From: a virus | Lineage: Duplodnaviria > Caudoviricetes | Virus record (IMG/VR): IMGVR_UViG_3300034116_000957 | Location: 1 to 61,937 of that record | Direction: 5' to 3' (one strand) | Length of the DNA stretch: 61,937 nucleotides | Position numbers and translations under genes: made by a program | Shown: one piece after another, positions 30,331-49,037 of the stretch | Position numbering within the stretch: the stretch's first letter is position 1 | How the letters are laid out: every line of letters begins with the position of its first letter | The notes under the pieces: generated by a model | What the model saw: the letters and a program-made list of their open reading frames with translations, nothing else | Told to the model about the DNA's origin: nothing | Database searches by the model: none

Positions 30331-30332
30331 GT

Positions 30333-30893: not shown

Positions 30894-31467
30894 CTGGTTC
30901 TTCCTTTTCCTTGAGCGCCACGAACTTGACTACTTCCTGCTCTTCCGTGACTTCGCACCCGTCAGGCCTGACCTCGCTGTACAGAAGTAGATCGCTGATT
31001 GATTGTTGTGAAAGCTTGGACACAAGAACCGTTTCAGCAACCTTGACTGCGTCTGGCTGATACGTCTTAGCCCAAGCGACCGCAGCTTCTTTGTTTGTGA
31101 AGTTGATCTTCGCTTTGCTGGTGCGGAATGTGATCTCACCATACGGGCTGGTGTACGTCTTCTTATTGCGAGGAAGCAGTCGACGAGCCACATCAGTAGC
31201 GGTCACGCCATACTTCAGTTCAATCCAGCTGCGACGTGACTCCAGAGCTTTGATGCGCTTCTCACACATCTCTTGGATGCGCTTGAGTTGTGCACGTTCT
31301 GCCACGAGGAGAGAGTCAACCTCAAGCATCTTCTTCTGCAGGATCCAGAGGTCTTGCTCTGTTTCCACTGCACCATTGTCGAGCCAGCCATAGGCTCCCA
31401 CTACCTCGCCAGTAGTGGGGTCTATGACCCATCCGTTTTCACGGATAAGTTCATCCTGTTCTTCCAT
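30883..31467 (-). CDS. Gam/Gp157-like host-nuclease inhibitor
   Basis: Coiled coil followed by KKTYTSPYGEITFR; adjacent to the annealing protein. Confidence 0.65.
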   Translation of the reverse strand: MEEQDELIRENGWVIDPTTGEVVGAYGWLDNGAVETEQDLWILQKKMLEVDSLLVAERAQLKRIQEMCEKRIKALESRRSWIELKYGVTATDVARRLLPRNKKTYTSPYGEITFRTSKAKINFTNKEAAVAWAKTYQPDAVKVAETVLVSKLSQQSISDLLLYSEVRPDGCEVTEEQEVVKFVALKEKEEPDGE

Positions 31468-32093
31468 TAACCTTCCTCCTCGTCAGTCAACAGCTCAGTG
31501 GCAAACGCATCTCCGTTTTCGTACTCAGCCATTCGTGCTACGGCAGCGTTCAGCTTCTCGGTCTCCATCGTGGTCGAGCCGTACATCCGGGAGTAGATAC
31601 CCTTTGCATCCGCTGGAGTTAGCTCATTGCCAAACAATCGTTTACATCCATCCATAAACAAGTTGGCGGCGACCTTATACGCAACTTGTGGGTCTGTGGC
31701 TTTGACAACAACAGGCACAGCATTGATTTGGTATCCACGTGGGATTGGTGCATCAACGATGCGCTCACCCTCGTCGAGTTCGTCAAGAGCGTACTGTGTG
31801 CCGTAGCCAGCCATGAGGAGCGCACGTCCAACGGCGCCTGTCAACGACTTCTCTTCAAAGTCAGGGAAGTGAGCCTTATGCTCACGCTTGTGTCCGGTTG
31901 CGACGACGCGTCCATCAGGATCGGTGATGCTTGCACGTGAGAGACAAGACGTTTCGTCTGTGCTAACGATCTCTGCCGTGATTCCCCATCCATCAGCGAC
32001 TGGATGGTCTTCGCGGAACAGCGCAATGCGGACGTACACGGGGGCATAAAGCTTGCCCCCTTTCATTTTTACGAGATGGTCTTCGATTCTCAT
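31467..32093 (-). CDS. ssDNA-annealing recombination protein (Rad52/Sak-like)
   Basis: Y.PVYVRIALFREDHP...VATGH...EKSLTGAVGRAL..AGYG pattern. Confidence 0.65.
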   Translation of the reverse strand: MRIEDHLVKMKGGKLYAPVYVRIALFREDHPVADGWGITAEIVSTDETSCLSRASITDPDGRVVATGHKREHKAHFPDFEEKSLTGAVGRALLMAGYGTQYALDELDEGERIVDAPIPRGYQINAVPVVVKATDPQVAYKVAANLFMDGCKRLFGNELTPADAKGIYSRMYGSTTMETEKLNAAVARMAEYENGDAFATELLTDEEEG

Positions 32094-32740
32094 TGGTTAT
32101 CTCCAATCTTGCGCAGGAGCTCTGCTTCTGCATCTGTGTCAACAAACTTCGACAGCATGTACATGTTGCGCTCGAGTGTCTCTCGAACACGGTACGTGTT
32201 GCCTTGATACCACACTGTTTCATCTGGCAATGCAAATGTTATAAGCGGGTTGCACAAGAATTCTGTGGTGTCGTTGTTGATCAGTTCACCTGTCACGTCG
32301 AGCAAGTCAGCGATGTCTTGTGCAATGACGATGGCTCCGTCGATGCGGACATACTCTCCGTTGTCCTTTGCGGACAGTACTGAGCATGCTGGATCTGAGC
32401 AGAGGCGGCTGCCCCATTGTGCCATTTCGCCAACAGCTCTGGACAACCAGCCGTCTCCAGCAACGATCATCCTGCAGGAGTTGCGGTACATGAAGAACCG
32501 CCAGTCGTCGCAGAGAGAGAACAGTGTCGTCTGCTTGAGGATAGGCTTCTCGCCCTCAACACTTGCAATGAAGCCTGCAAGTTCTTCTTTCGTGTCACCA
32601 ATGATGACAGCGGTGATTTCGTGTTCCTTGGATCCACCGCACATGAGTCCGCCGGTTTCTGTTTCGGCGTAGTAAACGAGACCATGTTTGTCCAGATCAC
32701 TGACAAACATGTAGTCAATCGATGAATGCATGCTTTTCAT
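32090..32740 (-). CDS. Hypothetical protein
   Basis: Long ORF coupled to neighbours; start uncertain. Confidence 0.55.
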   Translation of the reverse strand: MKSMHSSIDYMFVSDLDKHGLVYYAETETGGLMCGGSKEHEITAVIIGDTKEELAGFIASVEGEKPILKQTTLFSLCDDWRFFMYRNSCRMIVAGDGWLSRAVGEMAQWGSRLCSDPACSVLSAKDNGEYVRIDGAIVIAQDIADLLDVTGELINNDTTEFLCNPLITFALPDETVWYQGNTYRVRETLERNMYMLSKFVDTDAEAELLRKIGDNQ

Positions 32741-33128
32741 TTCGCTCAAGATAGCGTTCCAACCTTTCAACTTGCATGGGGCTTCCATACATTGATTCAA
32801 ACGTTTTGATTTGTTGAATAACGGATTCAACATCCCGGCAGATGACTGTCATCTGCTGATCTGCCATACACTTTTGTTCTTTGCGTATGGCGCCTGTCTT
32901 GGTTTTGAGTTCGATGCCAACAGCTACGGGCATGTGCCAGTGGGCAGCATGAATGTAGAGGTCTGGGCAACCGAGTGTGTTGCCTTGCCATCCTGTTGGG
33001 TAGTGCATGTTCTTGCACCGTGGACATTGAACCTTGCGCCTTGCTTTACCTGTCTCTATGACGGTGTAGCCAAGGAAACCTAGCGTGTTTACGATCAGTG
33101 TTTGTAACTGCGCTTCCGTACTCTTCAT
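32715..33128 (-). CDS. VRR-NUC / PD-(D/E)xK nuclease
   Basis: TEAQLQ...GCPDL...IELKTKTGAIRKEQK with a CxxC insert. Confidence 0.8.
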   Translation of the reverse strand: MKSTEAQLQTLIVNTLGFLGYTVIETGKARRKVQCPRCKNMHYPTGWQGNTLGCPDLYIHAAHWHMPVAVGIELKTKTGAIRKEQKCMADQQMTVICRDVESVIQQIKTFESMYGSPMQVERLERYLERNEKHAFID

Positions 33129-33241
33129 GCTGGTATAATAACAGCAAGAACCTACCTCCATGGCGTTCTCAATAGGGTCGGGGGCGCCTCCTATGCACAC
33201 ACAGCCCCCTTCCCGCCTATCTACTTACGTAGAAAAGTATA

Positions 33242-33796
33242 TCACCTCCCGGTCGTGGAGTTTATCCAATCCCAACAATATCTGTTGATCGAGACAGTAA
33301 GTTTATGACCTCCGATCGATGTGTCGATCTTCGCGAGCTTGCATGCGATGTGTGCTGACTTTGGGTCTGGTGCAAGCCTGTATATCTTTTGATATTCGTC
33401 AATGCTGTGGACTGTCTTGATCCAGTCAGCGTGTCTGTGTGTTGGGTGTGCCATCATGTCGATGGGGTCTGTCTTCGCAAGGTGCCTGTAGCGTGTCCAT
33501 TTGTGTTCAGCTACGACCACACCCCGCTCTATCACAATCAGGAACCATCGCCTCATGGGGATCAGTCCGTTTAGGACTGCCAGAAGGTGATCGTAGTTCC
33601 TGTATGTGACGTTGATGGCGTCGACCGTGACCTCGCCTGTGTCTTTGTTGAGGCAGATAGTCTTCGCCCATTCGAGAGCAATGGACTGAGCCTGGTCGAA
33701 TGATTTGCTCCACTCGACCTTGCCCGTAGTCTTCACTCGGAAGAACCTCAATGTGGCTTGATCTTCCCTTTGTGTCGTTCCCTGCACTTGTAGCAA
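33242..33796 (-). CDS. Hypothetical protein
   Basis: 184-aa ORF in the early operon. Confidence 0.55.
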   Translation of the reverse strand: MLQVQGTTQREDQATLRFFRVKTTGKVEWSKSFDQAQSIALEWAKTICLNKDTGEVTVDAINVTYRNYDHLLAVLNGLIPMRRWFLIVIERGVVVAEHKWTRYRHLAKTDPIDMMAHPTHRHADWIKTVHSIDEYQKIYRLAPDPKSAHIACKLAKIDTSIGGHKLTVSINRYCWDWINSTTGR

Positions 33797-34131
33797 TGCC
33801 AGTGTGGCGTCCAGTTGCCGAGCAGGAATTCATCTACGATCTCGCACACGGTAGCAAGCTCCCCGTTAGGGTTCTTGGATTGATGTGTGAGTACAGGCTT
33901 CTTGCCTTCTTCGTTCCAGACCATCATCTGGTCTGAGATAACGTCTACGTCAAGCGTGTCAGGCACAGCGAATGTGGCAATGTCAAGGTTGAAGTAGTTC
34001 CATTGAAGTGTGCACATGGGAACGCCTTTGCGCTCCCATTGCGTCACGGTGATCTTCTTCCATAGAGGTTTCAGATCATCAGGAGCACTGTCAATCCAGC
34101 ACTCCATCAGTTCACGTATGATGTTGTTCAT
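33748..34131 (-). CDS. Hypothetical protein
   Basis: MNNIIRELM start; C-terminal CxxC. Confidence 0.55.
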   Translation of the reverse strand: MNNIIRELMECWIDSAPDDLKPLWKKITVTQWERKGVPMCTLQWNYFNLDIATFAVPDTLDVDVISDQMMVWNEEGKKPVLTHQSKNPNGELATVCEIVDEFLLGNWTPHWHCYKCRERHKGKIKPH

Positions 34132-34268
34132 TTCTTCTTTGCGATCTCCATCACCAGAGCTATCGGGTATAGAGGCACGGTGATCAAGAAGCACAGCACG
34201 AGGAATGGCAGGAAGTGCATGATCAACACACCGGGGATCGAGACCATGAGTCCGAGGATCTCTGTCAT
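34128..34268 (-). CDS. Small membrane protein (46 aa, not in ORF track)
   Basis: MTEILGLMVSIPGVLIMHFLPFLVLCFLITVPLYPIALVMEIAKKK; ATGA overlaps at both ends; GAGG RBS. Confidence 0.6.
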   Translation of the reverse strand: MTEILGLMVSIPGVLIMHFLPFLVLCFLITVPLYPIALVMEIAKKK

Positions 34269-34660
34269 GCTGTTACCTCTGCTTCGTCTGTGAAGATCCA
34301 CTCCCACAGGAATGTAGAGTCACCTGCCACAAACTTGAGTTTGTGTTGAATCACGGTGTTTCCAGAGCTAAGGTTGATAGCATTGTGGGAGTAGTCGATG
34401 TCTGCCTCAGTGACTTCACCCTTGATGATGTCGACCTTGGCTTTATAGGTGTCTGGGTCGATCATGTCGATGATCATGCGAGCGATAATCTTGATGCTTT
34501 CGTTGTCGCCCATTGCGCTGATCATGACAGGATTGTGATGTACGTTGGTGATCATGCAACGGATGCTCTGCAGCGTGTCCTTCTTGTAGTCCTTCACAAG
34601 CGGATGTTGAACGACGAATGGCGAGATGTGCGCGAACGCCTCGTAAGTATTAACTTTCAT
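34265..34660 (-). CDS. Hypothetical protein
   Basis: 131 aa; preceded by a structured leader. Confidence 0.6.
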   Translation of the reverse strand: MKVNTYEAFAHISPFVVQHPLVKDYKKDTLQSIRCMITNVHHNPVMISAMGDNESIKIIARMIIDMIDPDTYKAKVDIIKGEVTEADIDYSHNAINLSSGNTVIQHKLKFVAGDSTFLWEWIFTDEAEVTA

Positions 34661-34670
34661 TTGAACCTTT

Positions 34671-34704
34671 CAGTGCTGGTGTTTCGCCCCACCAGCAGGG
34701 CAAT
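34671..34704 (-). promoter_or_regulatory. Conserved 5' leader hairpin/pseudoknot, copy A
   Basis: TTGCCC-TGCTGGTG-GGGCGAAA-CACCAGCA just before the RBS. Confidence 0.55.
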
Positions 34705-34709
34705 GGACA

Positions 34710-35123
34710 CTAGTCGATGATCTCGTAAGGTGTCCGACTGAGTTGGAAGTTGAATGCGCCCCAGATGGAAGTGTCTTTTGACTTGTAGTGCAGGGCGTAG
34801 TCGTAGTTGTCCCATCCTTTTTCGAGAGAGAAGTCAAACTTCCGTGTGATGTCACTCCAGATCAATGCGCGGACAATGCACTCAATGGAATGTTGATCAC
34901 GTCCAACTGTCGTGGACAGGCAGACAGGATTGCATTCAATCGTCGTGTACATGGTTGCACCCGCATTTTCAAGTGACTCGTACTTGTATGCTGCCCAGTT
35001 GCTCATGCCATGAGTGTTCAGGTGTGTGAACACAGAGAGTACAGCGTCGAGCTGTGTCTGTGTCAGGGTGCCTTGCCCAACAAGGGCAAGTGCTTGTGTG
35101 TCAGAATCGGTTAATCTAACCAT
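34710..35123 (-). CDS. Hypothetical protein
   Basis: 137 aa; GGAGG RBS. Confidence 0.6.
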   Translation of the reverse strand: MVRLTDSDTQALALVGQGTLTQTQLDAVLSVFTHLNTHGMSNWAAYKYESLENAGATMYTTIECNPVCLSTTVGRDQHSIECIVRALIWSDITRKFDFSLEKGWDNYDYALHYKSKDTSIWGAFNFQLSRTPYEIID

Positions 35124-35135
35124 GGTGAAAACCTC

Positions 35136-35168
35136 CAGTGCTGGTCATTCGCCCGACCAGCAAGGCAC
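35136..35168 (-). promoter_or_regulatory. Conserved 5' leader hairpin/pseudoknot, copy B
   Basis: GTGCCT-TGCTGGTC-GGGCGAAT-GACCAGCA just before GGAGG. Confidence 0.55.
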
Positions 35169-35231
35169 TCAAACATTACACAGATATTATCGCACCAGGC
35201 ACATGATGTGTGACATGTTGTGACAACTTAT

Positions 35232-35621
35232 TTAGTCGCTCCAATAATCGCCGGACACACGATCTTCAAAGCCGCGTTGTGCGTCCGATTCAATCTCTTC
35301 ATTGATGCTTGTGAGCCAAGCTTCGACCTCAGCGCGGTACTCGTGGAGGTTTTCGCAGATGGTATTGATCGTCTCGTCCTCGCCATGTGTTTCCTTGACG
35401 TACTGCTCAAGGGCTTTGGAACACTGAGTCATAAACTCAGACGTCATGCCTTCGTCCAGTTGGTTCTGTTGTGCCCAGAACAGCGACTCAGCAAACTCAG
35501 CGACTTGAATCTGCTCGTATTCGACCTCAGCTGCGGATTCATCGTCCTCGATCGAGAGTTCGGCGACGAACTGTGCCGGGATATTGAATCCCAGCACGTC
35601 ACGAATTGAGTAGTCAATCAT
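35232..35621 (-). CDS. Highly acidic hypothetical protein
   Basis: GGAGG RBS; strongly D/E-rich. Confidence 0.6.
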   Translation of the reverse strand: MIDYSIRDVLGFNIPAQFVAELSIEDDESAAEVEYEQIQVAEFAESLFWAQQNQLDEGMTSEFMTQCSKALEQYVKETHGEDETINTICENLHEYRAEVEAWLTSINEEIESDAQRGFEDRVSGDYWSD

Positions 35622-35622
35622 T

Positions 35623-35946
35623 TCAATACCTCCCGCCACCTGTGTCGTCTGTTGGTGGCTCTGCGTAGTCAGATGGTTTTGCCCAGTTGATTGGGGTTTC
35701 GTCGTCGACGTCTTCGTTGGATTCTTCTTCCTCGCTGTCAAACACCTCGAAGTCGACACCTTCAGCAGGATCGCAAACGATTACTGCCTCGCCGTTTTTG
35801 TCTGCTGTAAAGTTCTTGTCAATCGAATACACAGTGAAGATGTCCGCTGGCATGCAGTTGCCCCCGTGAGGGCAATCCACGCGAACGGTGATGCTCGCAT
35901 CCGCTGGCATCTCTGCAAGCTTTGCGATCAATTCTTTTACTGTCAT
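35623..35946 (-). CDS. Hypothetical protein with acidic tail
   Basis: MTVKELIAKLAEMPADA N-terminus common in small phage early proteins; GGAGG RBS. Confidence 0.65.
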   Translation of the reverse strand: MTVKELIAKLAEMPADASITVRVDCPHGGNCMPADIFTVYSIDKNFTADKNGEAVIVCDPAEGVDFEVFDSEEEESNEDVDDETPINWAKPSDYAEPPTDDTGGGRY

Positions 35947-36437
35947 ACCGTCACCTCCTCTGCGTTCTTGTTGATGTAGTAAGCGTTGACGAAGTCGTCA
36001 ATCACAGGGTCGAAGATGTTGAACCATTCTGTGACGCCTCCCCAGTCAGCGACCATCTCGCCGCGTCCGATCTCAGCATCATCTGCGCAGTTACCGTAGA
36101 CCAGCACAATGCTGATGAATGTGTTGTCGTTGTCTTCATCGCGTTCGATCTCGCCATCGTAGATCAGCAGGTATTCGGTGTCGCATTCTTTCATGTGCTG
36201 AATCATCTGCTCAGGAGACGTGATGGGCGTGTACTCTTCCTCACCGTCAAACAGTTCGATGCATAGCCCGTGCTCACGGCACACAGGCAGAAGCTTCTCC
36301 ACCAGTTGGTACCCGTGCACATACTCAGCAAATCCGCGACCTTGCACACTAGGAGCATGCGTCTTCCGCACCTTCTGTGCAATCAAGTCACCGATTGATC
36401 CCATCAATACACTGTCAAACATGGTCGTGCTTGTCAT
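35943..36437 (-). CDS. Acidic hypothetical protein
   Basis: GGAGG RBS; coupled to the upstream stop. Confidence 0.6.
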   Translation of the reverse strand: MTSTTMFDSVLMGSIGDLIAQKVRKTHAPSVQGRGFAEYVHGYQLVEKLLPVCREHGLCIELFDGEEEYTPITSPEQMIQHMKECDTEYLLIYDGEIERDEDNDNTFISIVLVYGNCADDAEIGRGEMVADWGGVTEWFNIFDPVIDDFVNAYYINKNAEEVTV

Positions 36438-36964
36438 TACTTTTCCTCCTCCATCTTCAGACAAAACGGACACGGTTCGTCAAGCAAATATGCAACACTT
36501 GGCTTGTCACACACATCACACCAACCAACACCCAGCAACCAAAGGTCTTCTTCCGTTAGCTCTTCCGCGCTACGGACAGATAATTCTGTAATCTCACCGT
36601 TTGATGCCACCAAAGTCCCAGCAAACAAGTCTGCCGCCTGACCCCAAGTAATGTCAAAGGACAACTCTGGGTGTAAGGACACGATCCCACTAAACCAGTC
36701 ACGTGGCTCATTCCACCGGGAGTCTATATAAAGCGTCAGGTCTGGGGTAATGCTAGGGTCTGCATACACATTCACGTTCGAGTCCGTTAGCACTAGCCCA
36801 CAGCAACTCCCGTCATAACCTGTGTCTGCCTTGTAACGAGAAAGACCCACAGATGCGTCAATAACTTCGCGCTTGTCTTCTTTGATGATATGCACAGAGA
36901 GGAAGTTGTCCAACCGCTCCTTGAGCCCAGAGATCCGGACTACACTCTCACACGTATTCGCCAT
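36437..36964 (-). CDS. DUF1281/YubB ferredoxin-like domain protein
   Basis: MANTC..VVRISG...DSRWNEP..W...HPELSF...FAG...NG pattern; GGAGG RBS. Confidence 0.5.
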   Translation of the reverse strand: MANTCESVVRISGLKERLDNFLSVHIIKEDKREVIDASVGLSRYKADTGYDGSCCGLVLTDSNVNVYADPSITPDLTLYIDSRWNEPRDWFSGIVSLHPELSFDITWGQAADLFAGTLVASNGEITELSVRSAEELTEEDLWLLGVGWCDVCDKPSVAYLLDEPCPFCLKMEEEK

Positions 36965-37402
36965 AACAATAAACCTCCAACCGCTTCTCATTTGGTAGAG
37001 AAGAAAACCAATGCTACAGAATCATCACAGGGATCGCCAGTGAGAAATCTCACAGCCAGATGAAGTCGTGGTGATGGGAAATGGAAAGATGCGGGATTTA
37101 TGGGGAAAAAGGGGGAAAAGGTGACGATTGGATCGGACTTCGTCCCTACAGCTCGAGCCAGTAAAAATAATACCTGCTGTAGACCCCGTAAGTCGGCAAC
37201 CTGCCTCGTTTAACCGTTAGCTGCGCATTCATGCAGGAGAGATAAACACGTGGCTTATTCGGCGTTTTTCTCGTGTCTTTCTCGCCGACCACAGCGGGAC
37301 GAGTACTTAGGGAGGTCTATACTTACGTGTGGTTGTAGGATCGTGGTGTGACAACAACACGAGACTATACCTACAGGGGTGGGGTGGGGTGCGGTTAGGC
37401 AC

Positions 37403-37431
37403 AAAAAAAGGTGGGAGCCGAAGCCCCCACC
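37403..37431 (-). terminator. Rho-independent terminator (representative of nine in the array)
   Basis: GGTGGGGGCTTCGGCTCCCACC followed by a T-run on the - strand, immediately after the stop codon. Confidence 0.9.
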
Positions 37432-37433
37432 GA

Positions 37434-38258
37434 TTATCTCCACAGAGCGGCGGATCCGTGAACCTTGATGACATTGTGCATGTCAGGTTGTCCGTTGCAC
37501 CGACCACAGTCGGAACAGGTAACCTTGCGCAAGGTCTTTAGGCTTGTGTCTGCCGGACAGCGCGTGTGGCGTTCGCGTCGAAGCGTTTGCCATTCGATGT
37601 CAAAGTTCGCCTGTGCAAGGACGGTGAATGTTCCCCATCCCATCGCTTTGGCTTCCCGCGCTTCCTCTATGCTGTCGCAGGAAGCTTGGCACATGCCTTT
37701 GAAATCCTGTGCCCATTCACGCTTCCATTGATGCGTGTATGCGGTGTGTCCCTTGTCGATGCGGACATTGTCCAACAGCGAACGCCACACCGGAAACGGC
37801 ACCATGGCAGGATCACCGTAGGCACCGACCCGCGTTTGCCTGTTGAATCGGCGAATCATCTCGTTGATGTCTGCCACGTCGACGTCTGCAACGTTACCGT
37901 TTAGATATGATTTCCACATAGCTGTCGGCGCGTTTCCAACCTGCACATAGCAGGTATTTACCGCAGACGTTTCCAGTTTGCCGGTGCGGTGATTGATGCG
38001 TGTTCGCATCTGCAAACGGTTGATACAGTCGCCACAAATAGCGGCGTCTTGGTATTGCAACGCGTCAAGCGGTGCCATATCGGTGCGCATGATGTACGTT
38101 TGCACCATGTCACCGGTCTTGTCATTCGCTTTGTCTGCGGATGTTTCCAGACCCGTGACCCAAAGCGCGATAGGCGTGACGTTATCCCACGGCGAAACAC
38201 CGCGCCACACAATAGCGGTGTTGAAGGCAGGGTTTCCTGCACGATTGTAAAGACGCAT
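37434..38258 (-). CDS. Cassette 1: Cys-rich, possibly Fe-S/radical-SAM-like phage protein
   Basis: NDKTGDM, CGDC, CYV, RVGAYGDP, YTHQW, CPA, TCSDCGRC and HG motifs. Confidence 0.55.
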   Translation of the reverse strand: MRLYNRAGNPAFNTAIVWRGVSPWDNVTPIALWVTGLETSADKANDKTGDMVQTYIMRTDMAPLDALQYQDAAICGDCINRLQMRTRINHRTGKLETSAVNTCYVQVGNAPTAMWKSYLNGNVADVDVADINEMIRRFNRQTRVGAYGDPAMVPFPVWRSLLDNVRIDKGHTAYTHQWKREWAQDFKGMCQASCDSIEEAREAKAMGWGTFTVLAQANFDIEWQTLRRERHTRCPADTSLKTLRKVTCSDCGRCNGQPDMHNVIKVHGSAALWR

Positions 38259-38442
38259 AACGATGTAGCCTCCTATGCTACACAAGTATTGCAATATGCC
38301 ACGCCACACGCCAACCACAGACAGTCATATACTTACGTGGGCCTTGTAGTTCGTGGGCCAGTAACACCTCTACCTATACTAGCGGGGAGGGTGTGGGCAG
38401 CTTTTTTGACAAAAAAAGGTGGGAGCCGAAGCCCCCACCGAG

Positions 38443-38955
38443 TTAGATTTTGACGTCAGTGTTGATCGTCAGGCGATGTGGAGACGGAGGACATTCCTGA
38501 TTCTTCAGATATTCCTTGATCACGCGCTCTTTGTAGAGTTTTTCGCGCTCGATCTTGTGGTTGCGCCAGATTTCGTATCGGCGGAACATGTGCTCTCTCA
38601 TCTCTCTGCATTCTTCATGCCATGAGATGCATGCTGTATCAATGCGGTTCTCAAACGCGTACGACATGATTAACGCCATTGTCTGCTCATCAAACTGACG
38701 AACATCAAACTTGTAGTCAAAGTCATGAGTGTCGATCTGCTCGGTAACAAAACGATCAAGACCGTAGACGTCTTCTGCGTTGATAGCCTCCTCATTGGAA
38801 GGCAACTTGAGGTGACCTTCATTGATGGCATCTTGCACGATGTCAAGGACTGCCTCGTGGTCAATGGACTCGGATGGCACTTCCTCAGAGAGGTTGTGCA
38901 ACTTAGCGGCGAATGTGCTGAACAACTCAGCAAGAGCGATCAAAAACTTAACCAT
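38443..38955 (-). CDS. Cassette 2: hypothetical protein
   Basis: AGGAGG in the repeat leader; stop abuts the terminator. Confidence 0.75.
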   Translation of the reverse strand: MVKFLIALAELFSTFAAKLHNLSEEVPSESIDHEAVLDIVQDAINEGHLKLPSNEEAINAEDVYGLDRFVTEQIDTHDFDYKFDVRQFDEQTMALIMSYAFENRIDTACISWHEECREMREHMFRRYEIWRNHKIEREKLYKERVIKEYLKNQECPPSPHRLTINTDVKI

Positions 38956-39135
38956 TTGATGTAGCCTCCTTGGCTACACTTTATATGCAATATGTGACGC
39001 GATGCGCCTATTAGATACAGATATATACTTACGTGCAGCGTGTAGATCGTGCCAGCTTTGACACTCCACCTATACTGACGGGGTGAGTGGGGGCAGCGCA
39101 GCGACAAAAAAAAGAGGGGCCGAAGCCCCTCTGAG

Positions 39136-39771
39136 TTACCAGCCCTTTTCGTTCTGGTTTGCGCATGTGTCGCAGACATATCCAAGGTGTTTGTCCTTGG
39201 GTGTCAAGACATTCTCACGACCGCATTGTCCGCATGGCAGGTTGCGCGGATTGCTTGCCGTTGCACGCCGTAACGATGAGACGCCGGTTGGGTCTGCGAA
39301 GTCGAAGTCGCCGTCTGGGTCGTCGTCATCATAGTCATCCCAGTCACACCGGATGATGTCGTCCTCGTCGTCGTCGCCATCCTCGGGTAAAGGATTGCCA
39401 TCCCATCCCAGCATGTCAGGCATAAAGTCGGACGGGTCAGCGTTGAACAAATCCGCCCATTCCATCAAAAGTTCTTCACTAGCTGAATCGCCGCCGATGC
39501 TGTAGTAGATGCTTTCTACTTCAGAGCATCCTGTGCACTCTGTGCCTGGTCGATGCTCACAGTCATGAAACACGCCAATCTCAAGCACTAAACGATTGTC
39601 TACGCAGGTTTCGCCATCCTCGATTTCGTCGAAGTAGGTTGCAAGATACGTCTTGCAATGGTGTTGAATGTGCTCAATCTTGTGCCATTCAAGGCGTTCC
39701 GCTTCCATGGTGAACCACGCCTTCGCGGATGCGGTGAAGGCGTCGAACACCTTCCGTTGTGTCTCTGTCAT
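39136..39771 (-). CDS. Cassette 3: acidic protein with C-terminal Zn-finger-like motif
   Basis: Asp-rich tract; CGQC...CDTC. Confidence 0.75.
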   Translation of the reverse strand: MTETQRKVFDAFTASAKAWFTMEAERLEWHKIEHIQHHCKTYLATYFDEIEDGETCVDNRLVLEIGVFHDCEHRPGTECTGCSEVESIYYSIGGDSASEELLMEWADLFNADPSDFMPDMLGWDGNPLPEDGDDDEDDIIRCDWDDYDDDDPDGDFDFADPTGVSSLRRATASNPRNLPCGQCGRENVLTPKDKHLGYVCDTCANQNEKGW

Positions 39772-39949
39772 AACAATGTAGCCTCCTATGCTACACAATA
39801 TATGCATTATGGTACGTCACACGCCTATTCCAAAGATACATATACTTACGTGGGCCGTGTAGATCGTGGGCCAACACCACCTCATCTGTACTTGCGGGGT
39901 GAGCGTGGGGTTTGGCACAAAAAAAGAGGAGGCTTTCGCCTCCCCTCTA

Positions 39950-40309
39950 TTAGTCAGTAACCAGCAATGCCCAAGCGCATGGGTCATCTTCTTTCTGAAG
40001 CATTGCTTCGACATGATTAATGGCTTTTGTCCATTCATCACGTCCAAAGTCATGGTTGTATGCGACCTGCCAAATAACGTCTTGAGATTCACGCAACATC
40101 TCAAGAGCCCACCGAAGACCAACCATGGTTCCGAGGTGATTACCATCGACTGTGACGTCTACGTTTGTGTCTGTGAACATCTCATAGACTTCATCTATTG
40201 TGAGCATTATTGGTTCAAGGTCTTGTGCCTCGATACCTTTCTCGATGTGGTCAATGAGCATCCCAATCGTCATGACGCGGTACGCTTCCGACATAAGTTT
40301 TTCCATCAT
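39950..40309 (-). CDS. Cassette 4: acidic hypothetical protein
   Basis: Bounded by the repeat leader and terminator. Confidence 0.75.
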   Translation of the reverse strand: MMEKLMSEAYRVMTIGMLIDHIEKGIEAQDLEPIMLTIDEVYEMFTDTNVDVTVDGNHLGTMVGLRWALEMLRESQDVIWQVAYNHDFGRDEWTKAINHVEAMLQKEDDPCAWALLVTD

Positions 40310-40486
40310 ACGTAGCCTCCTATGCTACACAATATATGCATTACAACACGCGTCGCACCAACCACAGATAGATATATACTTACGTGCGCGATGTAGATCG
40401 TGCGACATTGATACCACATCCATACTTGCGGGGCGGCTGTGGGGTTTGGCACACAAAAAAAGGTGGGAGCCGAAGCCCCCACCAAG

Positions 40487-41197
40487 TTACAAGGTCACCT
40501 TGCAACGGCACCCTGGTACAGGGCACTGCAACCAAGGCGTGCTCGCTTTGATGACTTTGAAGTCATCACTCTTGTAGTTGCCCTCGCTGTTGTGACCGTA
40601 CCAGTTCCACGTGTCATCGGTATAGAATCCGTGACCGGCACTGCACCGCAGGTCGCAACACGCAACGTCAAACCATGCGTCCTCATCTTGTAGCCTTGCG
40701 ATTACAGGATAGGAATATCCGCCGCGTGCATCACACCCGTTGTGGGTCATTACTGCATACAACGTGACGTCGTCCCAATCACATTCGCCACCCTCAATAC
40801 TACAGTTGTAGTACAGGACTTCTTGTGAAAGGAAGCTTTCATTGTTGTACGTGTTGTGAGCACCTACGCTTTTTGCCATCAGGCTTTTTGTGAAGAAGTG
40901 TTCTACCACTTCACCCCATGATGCATCAGGCATAGTTTCCGCAACGGCATTGAGAGTGTCTGTGTACTCATTGTCAATGGTGAAGAATGTGCACAAAGCA
41001 TCAACAACGTTGCGGGTGATGTCCCAACCGTAAGCGCGGACGTTCAAACGAAAGTCCCAATCGACATCGGCAAGGGTCAAACCTGCGTTGCGCTCAAAGT
41101 GCCGCCCATAGGCGCCGCCCGAGTCTAGAAAGTGCCGCCCTGTGTCGTGCTGAATCATTGCGAGCCATTGCTCGCGGTCTGTTTTGTGTTCTGCCAT
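40487..41197 (-). CDS. Cassette 5: hypothetical phage protein
   Basis: TGRHFLDSGGAYGRH, NTYN.E..LSQ, H.GCDARGGYS.P motifs; C-terminal Cys cluster. Confidence 0.75.
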   Translation of the reverse strand: MAEHKTDREQWLAMIQHDTGRHFLDSGGAYGRHFERNAGLTLADVDWDFRLNVRAYGWDITRNVVDALCTFFTIDNEYTDTLNAVAETMPDASWGEVVEHFFTKSLMAKSVGAHNTYNNESFLSQEVLYYNCSIEGGECDWDDVTLYAVMTHNGCDARGGYSYPVIARLQDEDAWFDVACCDLRCSAGHGFYTDDTWNWYGHNSEGNYKSDDFKVIKASTPWLQCPVPGCRCKVTL

Positions 41198-41393
41198 GAT
41201 AGGCAAACCTCCGATTGAGTATCGGCTTTCGCCGTACACTTTATATGCAATAAACTACGCCACGCGCCTATTACAACAATATATATACTTACGTGCTGAG
41301 TGTAGATCGTGCTGATCCACTACTCTCGTCTATACTGACGGGGCGTTGGTGGGCGTCGAATGACAAAAAAAGAGGGGCCGAAGCCCCTCTGAG

Positions 41394-41816
41394 TTAGCAG
41401 TTCTCCTTTACCATTCCGCCTCGTGGACCGACTTTGATGATGAAGTCAGGATAGTCGCCGACTTCCCCAACGTAGCATTCAAAGTAGGCATCGTTGTCAA
41501 GGCATGGATACATCCGTTGGTCATTCAACCTGCGCCACAATGCATTCTTGATTGCTGGAATACTCTTGAAGTATTCAGGTTCGCCAATGCTATACGAGGA
41601 GCCGCCAACAAATATGCATTGATACCCGTTGAGGTCTTTTTGACGATAGATGCAACCGTCGGCTGTGTCATAGATATACGCTGGGTATAACTTATAGCAA
41701 CGTCCACGGTCACGATTGATTTCCTTGACTTTGGCGAGCGCCTCATTGAGTTTAGCAAACTCGCCTAACCACTCGAGTCTGCCGAGCGCGTTCCGCCGTT
41801 GAACAACATACTGCAT
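41394..41816 (-). CDS. Cassette 6: hypothetical protein
   Basis: Bounded by repeats; ends in GPRGG motif. Confidence 0.75.
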   Translation of the reverse strand: MQYVVQRRNALGRLEWLGEFAKLNEALAKVKEINRDRGRCYKLYPAYIYDTADGCIYRQKDLNGYQCIFVGGSSYSIGEPEYFKSIPAIKNALWRRLNDQRMYPCLDNDAYFECYVGEVGDYPDFIIKVGPRGGMVKENC

Positions 41817-42002
41817 GATACGTAGCCTCCTTGGCTACACAATATATGCATTACACTACGCCGAACGCCTATTAGACACAGATATATACTTACGTGGCGC
41901 ATGTAGATCGAGGCCCAATAGCAACACATCTATACCGGCGGGGTGTGCGTGTGCATTTTTTGGCACAAAAAAAAGAGGGCGGTCGGTGCGCCCTCTTCAG
42001 TA

Positions 42003-42383
42003 TTAGAAATCAGCCTCGAACTTAGCTACGTATGAACGCAGGTCGTCTTCAAGTACCTTGCATTCAGACTTCAAGTCAGCAATGGTGCGAAGGTGTGTCT
42101 TCTTTTCCATAACCGCTTGACTGTACAGGTTCTGATACATCTCAGCGCGTTCACGCTGTTGTTTAGCATCGTTCATTGCAAACTCGCCAAACTCTTTGTG
42201 TTCCTTGACATGACGTAGCAATGTCTGGATGTTTTTCCAGTCTCGTGCAGACCGTGCTGTGTAGATATCAACAGAGCGTTGAAGACTATTGGCATGATGT
42301 GTCATCTCCATATACTTTCCAACAGCGATAACAGTGACGAGAAGCATCGCGGAGCATAGCACCGCAAGAATCATAACTAACAT
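42003..42383 (-). CDS. Cassette 7: membrane-anchored coiled-coil protein
   Basis: N-terminal hydrophobic helix followed by heptad-like region. Confidence 0.7.
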   Translation of the reverse strand: MLVMILAVLCSAMLLVTVIAVGKYMEMTHHANSLQRSVDIYTARSARDWKNIQTLLRHVKEHKEFGEFAMNDAKQQRERAEMYQNLYSQAVMEKKTHLRTIADLKSECKVLEDDLRSYVAKFEADF

Positions 42384-42563
42384 ACTAAAACCTTTCTTTC
42401 TACCGACACTTTATATGCAATACAGTACGCTACACGCCTATTCTAAAGATATATATACTTACCTGGTGCATGTAGATCCTGGGCAGATAACAACGCAGCT
42501 ATACTGACGGGGTGCGGTGGGGCGACTTTTGGCACAAAAAAGAGGGGCCGAAGCCCCTCTGCG

Positions 42564-42806
42564 CTACTTCTTCAAGTAGCAACGGCACTGGCATTGACAT
42601 TGCTCACTGATTTCATCAGCGAGGCAATCGCACCAGCAAAAGAAGCGATTCTCTTCTGTCTCGATGTGTTGACGACATCGAGTGCAACACCCTGGGTTCT
42701 TGTAGTGCCACCATAGTGACTCCAGCAGTGATGAAAAGAACACCATGACGAAGAAGATTGCGCCATACAAAGCGCACCAGCCAAGGGCTGGAATGACCCA
42801 TTCCAT
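42564..42806 (-). CDS. Cassette 8: small membrane protein with Cys-rich C-terminus
   Basis: MEWVIP start after GGAGG; TM segment; CCTRC...CWCDC...CQCQCRC. Confidence 0.7.
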   Translation of the reverse strand: MEWVIPALGWCALYGAIFFVMVFFSSLLESLWWHYKNPGCCTRCRQHIETEENRFFCWCDCLADEISEQCQCQCRCYLKK

Positions 42807-42999
42807 ATTGGAAACCTCCGAACAAGTATCGGCTTTCACCGTACACTCTATATGCAATATGCTACGCTAAACGCCTATTCTAACAATATATATACTTACG
42901 TGGCTAGTGTAGATCGTGGCAAAGTAACACTCACGCTATACCGACGGGGCGATGTGGGGCAGCTCGGCACAAAAAAAGGGAGGGCTTTCGCCCTCCAAG

Positions 43000-43575
43000 T
43001 TATTTCCCAGCGGATGCCATATCCGCCGAATGGATAATAGCCTGCAACAACGTTGCACGTTTATTATCCACTGCACAAGACTTGGGTGTTCCCCAGTCCG
43101 TGAAACCGTGATGTGCAAGCATTACCTCTGCAATCCGGTCTATCATTTTTGGTTTGGCAAGGACTCGCTCCGATGTGCCGTTAGCGTCTACCATCCACAT
43201 GACGCTCTTGATAACGTGTCCGATGCTGAAGTCACCGTACATAATCTTGCCGGTTGTGATGTCGATGCTGTACTCATCCACCTTCGCTACATCATGTAGC
43301 AGGGATGCGACCAGCAACACATCCATATCGTAATCGGTGTACTCATCGGTATTGCATTCAAGCATTGACACCGCATACTCTGCTACCTCGACAGTGTGTT
43401 GCCACAAGCCGTGTTGGTAGTTGTGATGATGTTTCATCGCGCCGGGCGCGTTGTAGAATCCAACGGGAATGGTGCGCTCCACCAACTCGCGCAGATTAGA
43501 ATCTGCAATCATATTCTTCAGTGCAGAGAAGCGAGCCGATAGGTCAAAGATGCAAGGTTGCATAGTGTTATCCAA
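43000..43575 (-). CDS. Cassette 9: HD-domain phosphohydrolase (YhaM-like, no OB fold)
   Basis: APGAMKHHH.Y..GL..HT.EV, LLHDVAK, GH, HHG...WGTP, H.AD motifs. Confidence 0.85.
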   Translation of the reverse strand: MDNTMQPCIFDLSARFSALKNMIADSNLRELVERTIPVGFYNAPGAMKHHHNYQHGLWQHTVEVAEYAVSMLECNTDEYTDYDMDVLLVASLLHDVAKVDEYSIDITTGKIMYGDFSIGHVIKSVMWMVDANGTSERVLAKPKMIDRIAEVMLAHHGFTDWGTPKSCAVDNKRATLLQAIIHSADMASAGK

Positions 43576-43903
43576 TGTAACTAAAGATATATATCAGTGT
43601 ATAAACTTTGTTACACTATATATGCAATACACCACGCGACAGACCTATTCTAAAGATATATATACTTACGTGCGCTATGTAGTTCGCTAGCATCTTAGCA
43701 CTATACGTATACTTGCGTGGTGTCGTGATGCATTTTTTTACACCCCCCTCCACCCCTACCCCCTCCCCTCCCCTAGCTACCCTGTACCCCCACATGGCAA
43801 GCCTCCCCCATACTATATATAAAAAATATGTAACAGACGCCTACAGATCATCATCCCCAACTCCTCTTTCTCCCGCCGGAGAACCACCTCCCCTAAAATT
43901 TCA

Positions 43904-43931
43904 TTGCATCCCCCAATAAACATGTTATACT
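43904..43931 (+). promoter_or_regulatory. Sigma70-type promoter for the rightward arm
   Basis: TTGCAT-N16-TATACT with extended TG, followed by AGGAG and ATG at 43949. Confidence 0.55.
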
Positions 43932-43948
43932 TACGAGCACAGGAGTTT

Positions 43949-44182
43949 ATGATGAAAAAAGAATGTTTACGAGATGACTATGAGCAGCTATTGTCTGACA
44001 TGCTGTTGATGCAGTATCGGGTTGAGGTTTTCCGTCGCAACATGCAGGTGGAGAATGGCTGCAATTGTGATCAGTTAAGTTTGGCGATGAGTGGTTCTGT
44101 TGACGAGTTGGTTGATATTGGTACTCGTCCTGTGTTGATGCCAGTGGCAAAGAAGAAGTCATGGTGGTCTAAGTGGGTTTAA
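43949..44182 (+). CDS. Hypothetical protein
   Basis: AGGAG RBS; first gene of the + arm. Confidence 0.6.
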   Translation: MMKKECLRDDYEQLLSDMLLMQYRVEVFRRNMQVENGCNCDQLSLAMSGSVDELVDIGTRPVLMPVAKKKSWWSKWV

Positions 44183-44466
44183 GTAATGCGCGTACTATTG
44201 GTAGTGTTTGCAAGCGTAGTAGCACTCAGCGTGATTATCGTCCGTTTACGCGACTGATCGATCACATTAGTATTTCTACGCAGGAGATGATTTGGCTCTG
44301 GTATAAGGAAGGCATGAGTCGTCGTCAGATGAGTGCTTCATTGTTGGAGCTTGGTATTCCAAGCCCACCAATGAAGGTACCTTGGGGTGACAGTGCTATC
44401 CGTGTAGTTGTTGAGAAGTACAAGGCTTTGGAGGCAGTTAATGGACAAGCGGAAGAAGCTGAGTGA
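44173..44466 (+). CDS. Small DNA-binding protein resembling the recombinase domain of large serine recombinases
   Basis: WYKEGMSRRQMSASLLELGIPSP...WGDSAIRVVV pattern; no catalytic domain. Confidence 0.45.
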   Translation: MGLSNARTIGSVCKRSSTQRDYRPFTRLIDHISISTQEMIWLWYKEGMSRRQMSASLLELGIPSPPMKVPWGDSAIRVVVEKYKALEAVNGQAEEAE

Positions 44467-44842
44467 GGCAAAGCTAAATGAGATCCGGGCGATGTTGGCT
44501 GAGGGTGTCAAGCCGCAGTCTGTTGCTTGGCAGTTTGGCATAAGTAACACGCACATATACAGGATTCAGTCAGCTATGCGTAAGGGTGAGGTTAAACTCA
44601 AGCGATCTTCTCTGGATAGCTGCTTGGGCCACATAAAAAATGGCTTACCATTTAGGCGTGTAGTGTGGCCTGAAAAGCTTTATTACTACTGCGCCATTGA
44701 TGAGCCAACTAAATGGTTCGTGATGGTCAATACAGAAACTGGATGTGAAGTCATAACCTTCAGGCTTGACCTAGCGCTTGAGGATCTACTTGCAAAGGAC
44801 TGGGTTGTACTTACTTGGGAGGCTGTAAATGACTGGGCTTGA
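44441..44842 (+). CDS. HTH plus DUF2829/Tad2-like fusion protein
   Basis: N-terminal IRAMLAEGVKPQSVAWQFGISNTHIYRI HTH; C-terminal IKNGLPFRRVVW...EDLLAKDWVV. Confidence 0.6.
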   Translation: MDKRKKLSEAKLNEIRAMLAEGVKPQSVAWQFGISNTHIYRIQSAMRKGEVKLKRSSLDSCLGHIKNGLPFRRVVWPEKLYYYCAIDEPTKWFVMVNTETGCEVITFRLDLALEDLLAKDWVVLTWEAVNDWA

Positions 44843-45062
44843 AGCACTTGAGTGGTTGCGAAATAGTTACAATAAAGTTAAACGTGCAGAATGGAAAGAT
44901 GATGAATATCTCAGAGTATCTGACGACCGTAAAAGCATATGTCCATCACTAGGCTACCACCGTAAACGGGGAGAAGATTGTTACTATCCAGAGGATGCAG
45001 TTATTTTGACGGAGGAAATTTTGAATGACTTTATGGAAGATGATTGGGAGATAGTGGAATGA
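44829..45062 (+). CDS. DUF2829/Tad2-like protein
   Basis: MTGLEALEWLR...KVKRAEW...DFMEDDWEIVE; GGAGG RBS. Confidence 0.6.
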   Translation: MTGLEALEWLRNSYNKVKRAEWKDDEYLRVSDDRKSICPSLGYHRKRGEDCYYPEDAVILTEEILNDFMEDDWEIVE

Positions 45063-45273: not shown

Positions 45274-45361
45274 ACATATGACTTAAACGACAAGTTAATC
45301 CTGTTTGGATGGTATTATAGGAACGCACAGGTTCCAGCAAGTCCGACCTTCGCAAAAAAAA

Positions 45362-45449
45362 GATCACCAACTACCTGCCTATTTGAAAACAGCTGGGGTA
45401 GTCCGTAGACTTCGACTCTACGGTGACGGTTCGAGTCCGTCGGTGATCT
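45362..45449 (+). ncRNA. Aberrant tRNA-like element 2 (TCG loop)
   Basis: GATCACC/GGTGATC acceptor; GACGG-TTCGAGT-CCGTC T arm; CCGTAGA-CTTCGAC-TCTACGG arm; oversized D-position arm. Confidence 0.5.
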
Positions 45450-45469
45450 TTTTGCGCGTATAATGAAGT

Positions 45470-45991
45470 ATGGACAGAAAGTATGCGTCACCTGGCCGAG
45501 TAATGAACGCTGACGTCAGCGCCTACTACGCACACCAAGACCCAATGCAAGGCGGAATGGTTACACGGCGTGGTAACCCAGTAGGTCGTGGTCGCATTGC
45601 TGTAGATCCATCAATCATCCCTTTCCGTAGCGTTGTATTCATTCCTGGTTATGGCTGGGCTACTGCCGATGATACTGGTGGACGTATAAAGGGCAATAGA
45701 ATTGATCTAGGCCACGGTGCTAATGAAGGCGATATCGCTAGAGCTTATGGCCACCAGATGCACAATGTTCATGTATATCCGCCAGATACTCCTTATCAAG
45801 GTATGAAGGATCCAGCTGCTCTGGAAGCATTCCTGCAGAGTAAGTGGAACGCTAAATATGGTCCAGGCCGTCGCCGTGCAGAAATTGATCCAAGCGGTAG
45901 CCGAATGATTGACATGATGATGCAGGACCAATTGTCGGATTACATGCCGCCTCAGCCTCAACTAGGCATGCAACAGATGCTAATGGGCTAA
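45470..45991 (+). CDS. 3D-domain (cell-wall hydrolase-like) protein
   Basis: IAVDPSIIP...IPGYG...ADDTGGRIKGNRIDL. Confidence 0.85.
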   Translation: MDRKYASPGRVMNADVSAYYAHQDPMQGGMVTRRGNPVGRGRIAVDPSIIPFRSVVFIPGYGWATADDTGGRIKGNRIDLGHGANEGDIARAYGHQMHNVHVYPPDTPYQGMKDPAALEAFLQSKWNAKYGPGRRRAEIDPSGSRMIDMMMQDQLSDYMPPQPQLGMQQMLMG

Positions 45992-47685: not shown

Positions 47686-47744
47686 AGTTTTAAAAGGCAA
47701 AATGATATAATCCAGACGTTAACTATTTTTACTAAGGAGGTAAA

Positions 47745-48065
47745 ATGGAACGTCCGTACGAACCAAAGACACTGATCCACAATCTTCTAGACAAGCAACG
47801 CCTGTCGCAGCGAAGATTCTCAGACTACATGGGTGTTGATGCCCCAACTATCTCGACATGGTGCGCTGGAAAGCGTATGCCAACAGACCCAAACATCGAG
47901 AAGATGGCGGAAGTACTCCAGGTAGATCGTGACTACCTACGTGGTTACCTTATTGCCCTCAACATCGTGCGCTCACACACGCCAGTTGTTGCTAATCATG
48001 TAGCTGATCACATCAAAAAAGAAGTCGAAAACAGGTTTTTAGACAACCTGAACAAGGAATTGTAA
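47745..48065 (+). CDS. XRE-family HTH regulator
   Basis: LSQRRFSDYMGVDAPTISTWCAGKRMP; TG-A-TATAAT at 47703-47711 and AAGGAGG upstream. Confidence 0.85.
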   Translation: MERPYEPKTLIHNLLDKQRLSQRRFSDYMGVDAPTISTWCAGKRMPTDPNIEKMAEVLQVDRDYLRGYLIALNIVRSHTPVVANHVADHIKKEVENRFLDNLNKEL

Positions 48066-48965: not shown

Positions 48966-49037
48966 CTCCCACTGCTGGGATCGAACCAGCGACCCTCCGG
49001 TTAACAGCCGGATGCTCTACCGCTGAGCTAAGTGGGA
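48966..49037 (-). tRNA. tRNA-Asn (GTT), CCA not encoded
   Basis: TCCCACT/AGTGGGA acceptor; TAGCTCAGCGGTAGAGC D arm; TCCGG-CTGTTAA-CCGGA anticodon arm; GCTGG-TTCGATC-CCAGC T arm. Confidence 0.95.

Follow-up and report, generated by a model that had tools for sequence, protein, structure and literature searches.

A 61,937-base stretch of phage DNA (Duplodnaviria; Caudoviricetes), which is one complete IMG/VR virus record (IMGVR_UViG_3300034116_000957) and is called the window below, carries a leftward operon with 10 terminator-to-promoter cassettes, each in the spacer preceding a small gene. In each cassette, read on the minus (gene) strand, a conserved AWCTACA core lies between two short sequences, tag A and tag B, each of which runs into CACG or a close variant of it. 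We find that the two tags co-vary: their free bases differ between cassettes and, within a cassette, copy each other in direct orientation far more often than expected by chance. This direct-orientation co-variation is real, and is the unusual part of the cassette array. It persists in relatives with entirely different tags, and cassette-specific complements to the tags were found neither in the cassettes nor in the flanking genes.

Co-variation of the tags

The initial annotation of this DNA, made from the sequence alone, had noted that the variable bases on the two sides of TGTAG(A/T)T, which is AWCTACA on the gene strand, tend to copy each other within an element and to differ between elements. 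The tag pairs that it quoted are all present (Table 1, last column), with only a partial match in the copy at 41893–41917. Its copies 2–9 are eight of the 10 cassettes; the first and last cassettes of the operon lie outside the range that it covered.

The match was measured by a shuffle test in which B was permuted among the cassettes with column composition kept, comparing the five free positions before CACG. For the 10 cassettes of the window, A equals B at 28/50 positions vs. 17.0 ± 3.2 (p = 0.00036; 50,000 shuffles). An excess was also obtained without the cassette that shares its tag with another (24/45, p = 0.0013), and when the first and last cassettes were additionally omitted (20/35, p = 0.0047). 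Three close relatives came from a pattern scan of IMG/VR; in the 40 cassettes of the resulting four phages the tags agree at 97/200 positions vs. 65.4 ± 6.3, a value that 0 of 20,000 shuffles reached. A pattern scan of metagenome contigs gave 112 stretches, from which 80 loci were taken. The window, the three relatives and these loci together contain 133 full-flank pattern matches, of which 98 have the loop motif (described below) upstream; these 98 comprise 75 distinct sequences, and three were removed as chance matches in coding sequence. The remaining 72 sequences represent 38 distinct A/B states, or 37 after leaving out a distant one, and these 37 agree at 94/185 positions vs. 57.7 ± 6.3 (shuffle maximum 85). 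Hence the identity of the two sides beyond CGTG (CACG on the gene strand) stays above chance with more copies, and both halves of the original observation, that the tag is cassette-specific and that it is duplicated in direct orientation, hold in the window and in its relatives.

The match is graded along the tag. Counted from the CACG end, identity among the 37 states at positions −5 to −9 is 0.78, 0.65, 0.46, 0.41 and 0.24, with expected values of 0.36, 0.32, 0.32, 0.25 and 0.28. The excess is thus confined to about 2–4 positions adjoining CACG and is gone by −9; i.e. the effective tag is 2–4 bases. The tags are GC-rich (84% G+C at −5 and 76% at −6), and the CG immediately preceding the first box and the CACG preceding the second are near-invariant (C in 34/37 and G in 37/37). 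Mutual information, the check suggested with the initial annotation, could be calculated on the 72-sequence alignment, where it is dominated by cassette-family structure and is uninformative on the tags.

Mismatched cassettes also exist. One pair, GCTGCTGCG / TATCGCACG, agrees at 3/9 positions and occurs in at least four contigs; the last cassette is likewise unmatched; and some cassettes that are kept in several genomes match at only 2–3 of 9 positions. In the relative G001, one gene that the window lacks is flanked by two mismatched cassettes (1/5 and 2/5).

Anatomy and spacing of the cassettes

Following the gene strand from the stop codon of the preceding gene, each cassette consists of an intrinsic terminator, a hairpin with the conserved loop CCCCGYNRGTATAG, tag A with CACG, the AWCTACA core, tag B with CACG, the box TAAGTATAT, and then a leader with further conserved blocks, the ribosome-binding site (often inside a small hairpin) and the ATG. 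A terminator-like GC stem and T run is predicted from the gene-strand sequence in 9/10 cassettes, the first cassette having no upstream gene; the region as a whole has 18 terminator-like sites vs. 5.8 expected. The full box, CACGTAAGTATAT, occurs 10 times (eight exact, two with one mismatch), always on the minus strand; neither the same box on the plus strand nor a reversed control pattern gave any occurrence. The hairpin loop is 13–15 nucleotides (nt) long, and its conserved sequence (CGTMAGTATA) is a paralogue of the CACGTAAGTATAT box; the AWCTACA core is a more distant paralogue.

The CG starts of the two boxes, AWCTACA and TAAGTATAT, are exactly 16 nt apart in every cassette. The phase of the tag repeat is not locked to them, being offset by 0, 2 or 4 nt. 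In the first cassette the repeat directly flanks the core, and a metagenome variant of this cassette has TGACG on both sides of it; in four cassettes of a distant relative (G004, below) copy A stops 2 nt short of the box. The copies often differ by a one-base indel: GCTG(G)CACG, TGC(A)CCAGG and GCCA(A)CTCG. A model of integron type, with tag B of each cassette equal to tag A of the next, was rejected, since a hand count gave 13/45 positions, about chance.

Table 1. Positions of the tag cassettes and associated elements in the window (tags are given on the gene strand, with plus-strand forms in the last column)
Feature	Position	Strand	Gene-strand tags and remarks	Plus-strand tags
Last cassette, B9/core ATCCTACA/A9	37326..37350	-	Weak A-B match, CACACCACG vs AACCACACG; plus-strand core TGTAGGAT	
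Cassette before gene 37434-38318	38336..38360	-	GGCCCACG both sides of AACTACA	CGTGGGCC twice
Cassette before gene 38443-38955	39032..39056	-	GCTG(G)CACG / GCTGCACG around ATCTACA; 1-nt indel between copies	CGTGCAGC / CGTGCCAGC
Cassette before gene 39136-39807	39849..39873	-	GGCCCACG both sides of ATCTACA	CGTGGGCC twice
Cassette before gene 39950-40309	40383..40407	-	CGCACG both sides of ATCTACA	CGTGCG twice
Cassette before gene 40487-41239	41292..41316	-	TCAGCACG both sides of ATCTACA	CGTGCTGA twice
Cassette before gene 41394-41816	41893..41917	-	GCCTCG / GCCACG around ATCTACA; relative has CTCG twice	CGTGGCGC / CGAGGCCC
Cassette before gene 42003-42383	42462..42486	-	TGC-CCAGG / TGCACCAGG	CCTGG twice
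Cassette before gene 42564-42857	42899..42923	-	GCCACG both sides of ATCTACA	CGTGGC twice
First cassette, before gene 43000-43575	43669..43693	-	TAGCG directly flanks AACTACA; repeat phase shifted 4 nt vs other cassettes	
10 invariant boxes CACGTAAGTATAT (plus-strand form ATATACTTACGTG)	37317..43672	-	Each 3' of tag B	
Terminator + hairpin, arms variable, loop with CCCCGYNRGTATAG	37351..43760	-	Upstream of tag A; one hairpin per cassette	
Solitary box-like motif CTCGTAAGTATAA	43925..43937	-	Divergent region; no AWCTACA box or tag repeat	
Solitary box-like motif CAAGTAAGTATAA	49410..49422	+	Ends 19 nt before ATG of gene 49441-50154; no AWCTACA box	

Some features of the leaders were recorded separately. 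On the minus strand, 3' of the box (e.g. 39805–39830), there is a second short direct repeat of the type GGCGT-NN-GGCGT (GGCGTTCGGCGT, GGCGTGTGGCGT), and the leader of one relative has a repeated 7-nt unit, GTGTAGC, which appears again in an arm of the hairpin that holds the ribosome-binding site. The TTGCATAT leader block is missing from the last cassette, and on the minus strand ~320 nt free of open reading frames (36992–37316) separate this cassette from gene 36437–36991. The start of this segment is conserved in two relatives; the segment has no Rfam match, and may be either a long leader or a non-coding RNA.

Persistence of the match through cassette turnover

There are 10 cassettes per genome in four phages and nine in the fifth. 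For the second-to-last cassette, the flanking genes and upstream arm are kept in all relatives. Its tags nevertheless change from genome to genome (GGCCCACG, GCCACACG, CCACACG and GGCACCACG), each being present on both sides of the core. The rare four-base endings CAGG and CTCG, too, are seen in both copies within a cassette; at 42462–42486, both copies end in CAGG in place of CACG in all four close phages. Since orthologous cassettes have changed both copies together, the match must have been renewed or maintained after the cassettes diverged.

The same is seen at greater distance. The relative G004, found by a looser scan, shares 5/10 of the cassette-region proteins compared, at 38–47% identity. 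It has nine cassettes with the boxes CGATYTRCA and TARGTATR, and its tags are entirely different from those of the window. The gapped local score between A and B is nonetheless 5.72 vs. 4.61 ± 0.38 (p = 0.0021). With the phase (0 or 2 nt) picked by eye, the four-base endings are CACG/CACG in three cassettes, CTCG/CTCG in four and CTCG/CCCG in one, and the last cassette is unmatched.

Gene content and order vary at the cassettes. Gene 42564–42857 has no homologue in three relatives, the order of the 39136- and 39950-type genes in G001 differs from that in the window, and contigs from other samples join different cassettes. As a side observation, contigs of other lake samples (runs X9, X10 and X14) join the terminator at ~39103–39129 to the identical-stem terminator at ~41361–41364, in both directions, and many contigs end at cassettes; these joints have arisen either by shuffling of cassettes within the population or by misassembly at the repeats. 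Four DNA runs, compared as assembled contigs only, listed no indels, and 0 of the 10 listed substitutions fall inside a tag. A search for related loci with the HD protein gave no relative. With the DUF7227 protein it gave eight, of which five are distant; three of these (L076–L078) were searched for repeats. L077 was considered as a carrier of the same cassette and rejected: its intergenic regions show ordinary sigma-70 promoters and a different hairpin in the 5' untranslated region.

Pairing partners of the tags

Complements of the tags were sought in the cassettes and in the flanking genes. The best aligned complement to the 5-nt tags matched at 2.9/5 positions vs. 2.3, a weak signal. In duplexes with their own terminator, hairpin and leader, the tags reached the same energies as with swapped partners, the largest own-partner gain being ~1 standard deviation, and own and swapped partners were likewise equal for duplexes with the hairpin arms. 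Within the genes next to a cassette, downstream or upstream, the longest complement is 5.6–6.2 nt, vs. 5.7–6.0 nt in other genes. When single sequences of both strands were folded as RNA, the partners predicted for the tags were inconsistent. By comparison, the arms of the neighbouring hairpin are cassette-specific and do co-vary with one another in inverted orientation (duplex −6.06 vs. −5.42 ± 0.18 for swapped arms; 0/500 shuffles), although as DNA the hairpin is no more stable than shuffled sequence (−3.72 vs. −3.77 kcal/mol).

The initial annotation is therefore borne out in its remark that hairpin pairing does not explain the tags, which have no specific pairing to the neighbouring hairpin arms. 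Its suggestion that the two segments pair alternately with a third strand has no support in cis, as the terminator, hairpin, leader and flanking genes hold no cassette-specific complement.

Boxes as candidate promoter elements

A consensus sigma-70 scan of the region found eight promoter-like sites vs. 9.0 expected, with a pass at the TCTACA-17-TATATT position in only 2/10 cassettes. A weight-matrix scan with approximate weights gave no position common to all cassettes; the best recurring site, at ~6.5 bits, is present in 29/72 sequences. A sigma-54 reading was rejected because the plus-strand TGGCAC has no −12 partner, and a G-quadruplex or i-motif reading because most tags have no G or C runs. 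The boxes are invariant, differ from each other, keep a fixed 16-nt spacing and depend on lineage; judged from these features of the sequence, their likeliest reader is a transcription factor or sigma-like protein encoded by the phage.

Box-like motifs also occur singly (Table 1). The motif CTCGTAAGTATAA, which lies in the divergent region, overlaps a promoter of sigma-70 type on the plus strand (TTGCAT-16-TATACT at 43904–43932, with a TG element); this promoter is predicted to drive the divergent plus-strand operon. The motif CAAGTAAGTATAA is conserved in three relatives, and in G004 a solitary TAAGTATA-like box ends 24 nt before another start codon. Separately, host-type promoters precede plus-strand genes at 47690–47745 and 45455–45470 (TGATATAAT and GTATAAT), in contrast with the non-canonical leftward boxes.

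The closest likeness in single-element form is to promoters of phage sigma factors. According to the sections of PMC8948821 on which we draw, the phiEco32 gp36 promoter is tAATGTAtA, with the start 6–8 bp downstream, and the phage 7-11 gp47 promoter is GTAAtg-(16)-aCTA. Like such promoters, the cassettes carry a conserved 9–13-nt A/T-rich box with a GTAT core before many genes and without a canonically spaced −35 partner, and the box differs by lineage (TAAGTATA in the window's group, TARGTATR in G004). Unlike them, the cassettes have a flanking direct repeat, of which those sections of PMC8948821 make no mention. The resemblance is an analogy from sequence and position, as no sigma-like gene was detected in this phage.

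In overall architecture the cassettes recall the promoter-early stem-loops (PeSLs) of T4-type phages (Arbiol et al. 2010, PMC2839356; Comeau et al. 2014, PMC4122927). As described in the parts of those papers cited here, PeSLs are small composite terminator-plus-promoter cassettes between small genes of mostly unknown function; their terminators are GGGG...CCCC stem-loops, and related phages differ at the cassettes in which genes they carry and in what order (PMC2839356). The cassettes of the window share the intergenic stem-loop terminator, as predicted from sequence, and the many copies beside small accessory genes with gain, loss and shuffling, the contig joints possibly being assembly artefacts. 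They show no consistent counterpart of the strong sigma-70-consensus early promoter with AT-rich upstream sequence given for PeSLs in the same parts, and have lineage-specific boxes instead. The setting also differs: PeSLs belong to T4-like myoviruses, whereas this is a 62-kb phage that encodes a 4046-aa protein of no known family. The account of PMC2839356 used here ascribes to PeSLs no second hairpin with a conserved loop and no co-varying direct repeat.

Among the matches listed in a literature search for the box motif, the strings appeared only as primer or vector sequence. In that search, and in the literature on PeSLs and phage sigma-factor promoters cited here, we met no co-varying direct repeat of this sort. 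Direct repeats that straddle a promoter element do have a precedent in the CII-activated promoters of lambda, where a direct tetranucleotide repeat lies on both sides of the −35 region. The cassettes are similar in that a short direct repeat (here C-N-C-G) straddles a promoter-proximal box. The CII repeat, however, is constant and its copies are one helical turn apart, whereas the cassettes have a 16-nt period, cassette-specific matched bases and a sliding phase.

Genome context

The minus-strand genes extend from ~27,000 to 43,600, and a plus-strand operon lies beyond the divergent region at 43,700–43,940. Matches in PHROGs and Pfam identify a portal protein, large terminase, major head protein, DnaB-type helicase, O-like initiator, Gam-like protein, SSB, dUTPase and endolysin. 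The phage proteins scanned gave no PHROGs or Pfam match to an RNA polymerase, sigma factor, integrase or transposase, nor to a reverse transcriptase, and the DxDGD motif is absent from all 65 open reading frames; very divergent sigma factors could escape these scans. The 4046-aa open reading frame (14715–26855, plus strand) matched nothing in Pfam, PHROGs or the PDB sequences and lacks a D-x-D-x-D motif; it presumably encodes a giant virion or ejected protein.

Although the record is classed as linear, bases 1–401 reappear at 61537–61937 with six mismatches, either because the genome has a terminal repeat or because it is circularly permuted and its assembly overlaps itself. The phage collection, searched at the nucleotide level, gave no match to the record. 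The sequence is present in DNA runs from lake water, and none of the listed sequencing runs with phage sequence is an RNA run. Rfam found only tRNA, and the sole tRNA called is tRNA-Asn (48966–49037, minus strand). At 45330–45450 on the plus strand there is a tRNA-like T-arm (GGTTCGAGTCC) with an acceptor-like helix and then a T run, which neither ARAGORN nor Rfam called.

The divergent region directly upstream of the first cassette contains a segment of ~180 nt (43720–43900) that is C-rich on the plus strand and shows GGGGAGGGG-type runs when read on the gene strand. Comparable G-rich runs occupy this position in L077, whose cassettes are unrelated, as well as in G004 and the close relatives. 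Beyond it, at 44408–45062 on the plus strand, two adjacent early proteins have weak Pfam matches to Tad2-like (Thoeris anti-defence) proteins, with E-values of 0.009 and 0.001, below the curated cut-off; the first of them also matches a resolvase-type helix-turn-helix, HTH_7 (E = 7.5e-6). The cassette genes may themselves be anti-defence genes.

DISCUSSION

The explanation that we tentatively favour, as possible and short of likely, is that the tags belong to a two-unit tandem repeat in a PeSL-like, phage-specific promoter region, and that they are information-free clamps kept alike by recurrent short-patch copying anchored on C-N-C-G. Two head-to-tail units would lie between the loop-motif hairpin and the leader, each formed by a GC-rich clamp (2–5 free bases and C-N-C/G-G) and an A/T-rich box beginning with CG: CG-AWCTACA in unit 1 and CG-TAAGTATAT in unit 2. 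The box TAAGTATAT would be a promoter box of the single-element type, and AWCTACA would act as an operator or auxiliary box. The clamps would carry no address information; as two copies of one sequence they would drift freely between cassettes and, within a cassette, would be re-equalised by template switching on the shared C-N-C-G during replication or recombination.

This explanation fits the identity gradient, the imperfect or absent matches, the sliding phase and the want of a pairing partner. A gradient falling away from the C-N-C-G anchor is expected because short copying tracts starting there would produce it, and the conserved cassettes that are mismatched imply that A/B identity is inessential. 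The sliding phase and 1-nt indels, set against boxes fixed 16 nt apart, argue against a protein that reads the tags.

Several points weigh on the other side. Copying between 6–9-nt repeats 16 nt apart without a net 16-nt indel needs two template switches, and we know of no such case. The match lasts down to 38–47% protein identity with wholly different tags; selection for identity explains this deep persistence, and the GC-rich tags, more simply. Among 89 cassette-context boxes there is no three-unit allele and no box without a core, with the proviso that only 40 of these cassettes are an unbiased sample because the metagenome loci were found by a pattern that requires the core. Finally, the promoter role of the boxes and the factor that binds them are themselves things we infer.

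Four alternatives were ranked, in the order out-of-register pairing, a tandem protein site, an RNA partner, and a scar or chance. In the first, identity itself is the function: tag A would pair out of register with the complement of tag B, with AWCTACA looped out or a promoter bubble held open. This would account for conservation that depends on identity and not on sequence down to 38–47% protein identity, for GC-rich tags beside A/T-rich boxes, and for the tolerance of 1-base bulges and phase shifts; moreover, the neighbouring paralogous loop motif is framed by inverted co-varying arms, of which the tags would be the direct-repeat counterpart. We nonetheless think it unlikely. By our own rough estimate, a slipped helix of 6–9 base pairs with two 16-nt loops would cost far more than supercoiling returns, several conserved cassettes are unmatched, and the neighbouring hairpin is no more stable than shuffled sequence. 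To our knowledge there is no precedent for out-of-register pairing in promoters.

A more specific form of the same idea, which we hold to be decidedly doubtful, is that the tags are an identity-dependent, sequence-independent promoter element that opens AWCTACA / TAAGTATAT for a phage-encoded reader of single-stranded DNA, i.e. a direct-repeat analogue of the hairpin promoters of phage N4, standing next to a true hairpin whose loop presents the paralogous box. Within this proposal the opening could occur by out-of-register pairing or by a melted strand that re-anneals one repeat away. Direct repeats of arbitrary sequence whose identity matters are familiar as target-site duplications, retroviral R regions and the overlap regions of recombination sites. 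As in those, the requirement or the signature here is the sameness of the two copies, and not their sequence. Such repeats, however, flank or join long elements, while the tag copies are 7–10 nt apart in a putative promoter region of a phage in which no transposase, integrase or reverse transcriptase was found.

The tandem binding site proposed in the initial annotation has fared unevenly. One phage or host factor might bind head-to-tail on two C-N-C-G elements that straddle AWCTACA, with the adjoining bases weakly read and hence inclined to agree. The near-invariant C-N-C-G ends suit this, as do the CAGG and CTCG variants on both sides of the same cassette, and the divergent early operon offers two small proteins, at 44173–44466 and 44408–44842, with resolvase-type helix-turn-helix features (HTH_7, E = 7.5e-6; an ESM Atlas score of 0.89, below the 0.9 level, is a lead only). 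For the invariant parts of the cassette such a site is possible. For the tags it is weakened by the repeat sliding 2–4 nt, with indels, against the fixed boxes; the 16-nt period would place the half-sites on opposite faces of the helix, and independent half-sites give no cause for their free bases to agree. As an explanation of the match we judge it rather improbable.

It is very unlikely that the tags form an RNA switch, with both identical segments competing for a single complementary third one, carried by the same transcript or by a trans RNA. Such a switch would predict direct-orientation co-variation, and the tags are indeed GC-rich and tolerate bulges; against it, the cassettes and flanking genes contain no cassette-specific complement, and the tags would lie outside the mRNA if TAAGTATAT is the promoter box.

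A one-off scar, i.e. a target-site duplication or recombination at insertion of the 7-nt box, can be set aside almost entirely along with chance or composition: the tag-box-tag layout, with a duplication of 5–9 nt and a variable offset, does resemble a target-site duplication, but the inserted piece would be only 7–10 nt, the same box at the same place in all cassettes implies an insertion that predates their divergence and hence shared tags where the tags differ, the single duplication suggested by the initial annotation is at odds with orthologues that differ between phages yet match within the cassette (the tags of G004 being all different), and chance is rejected by the composition-keeping shuffles.

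Co-variation is usually read as the pairing of inverted segments; here it occurs in direct orientation, in a regulatory cassette, and is kept through complete turnover of the sequence. If the copying explanation is true, there would be fast local copying in phage genomes, and a caveat for covariation-based structure prediction in repeats. If the identity is functional, the cassettes would represent a promoter design in which only the sameness of two flanks counts. In either event they are a compact natural set of variants, 10 per genome in several genomes, and through them the lineage-specific boxes of this uncharacterised freshwater phage group are defined.

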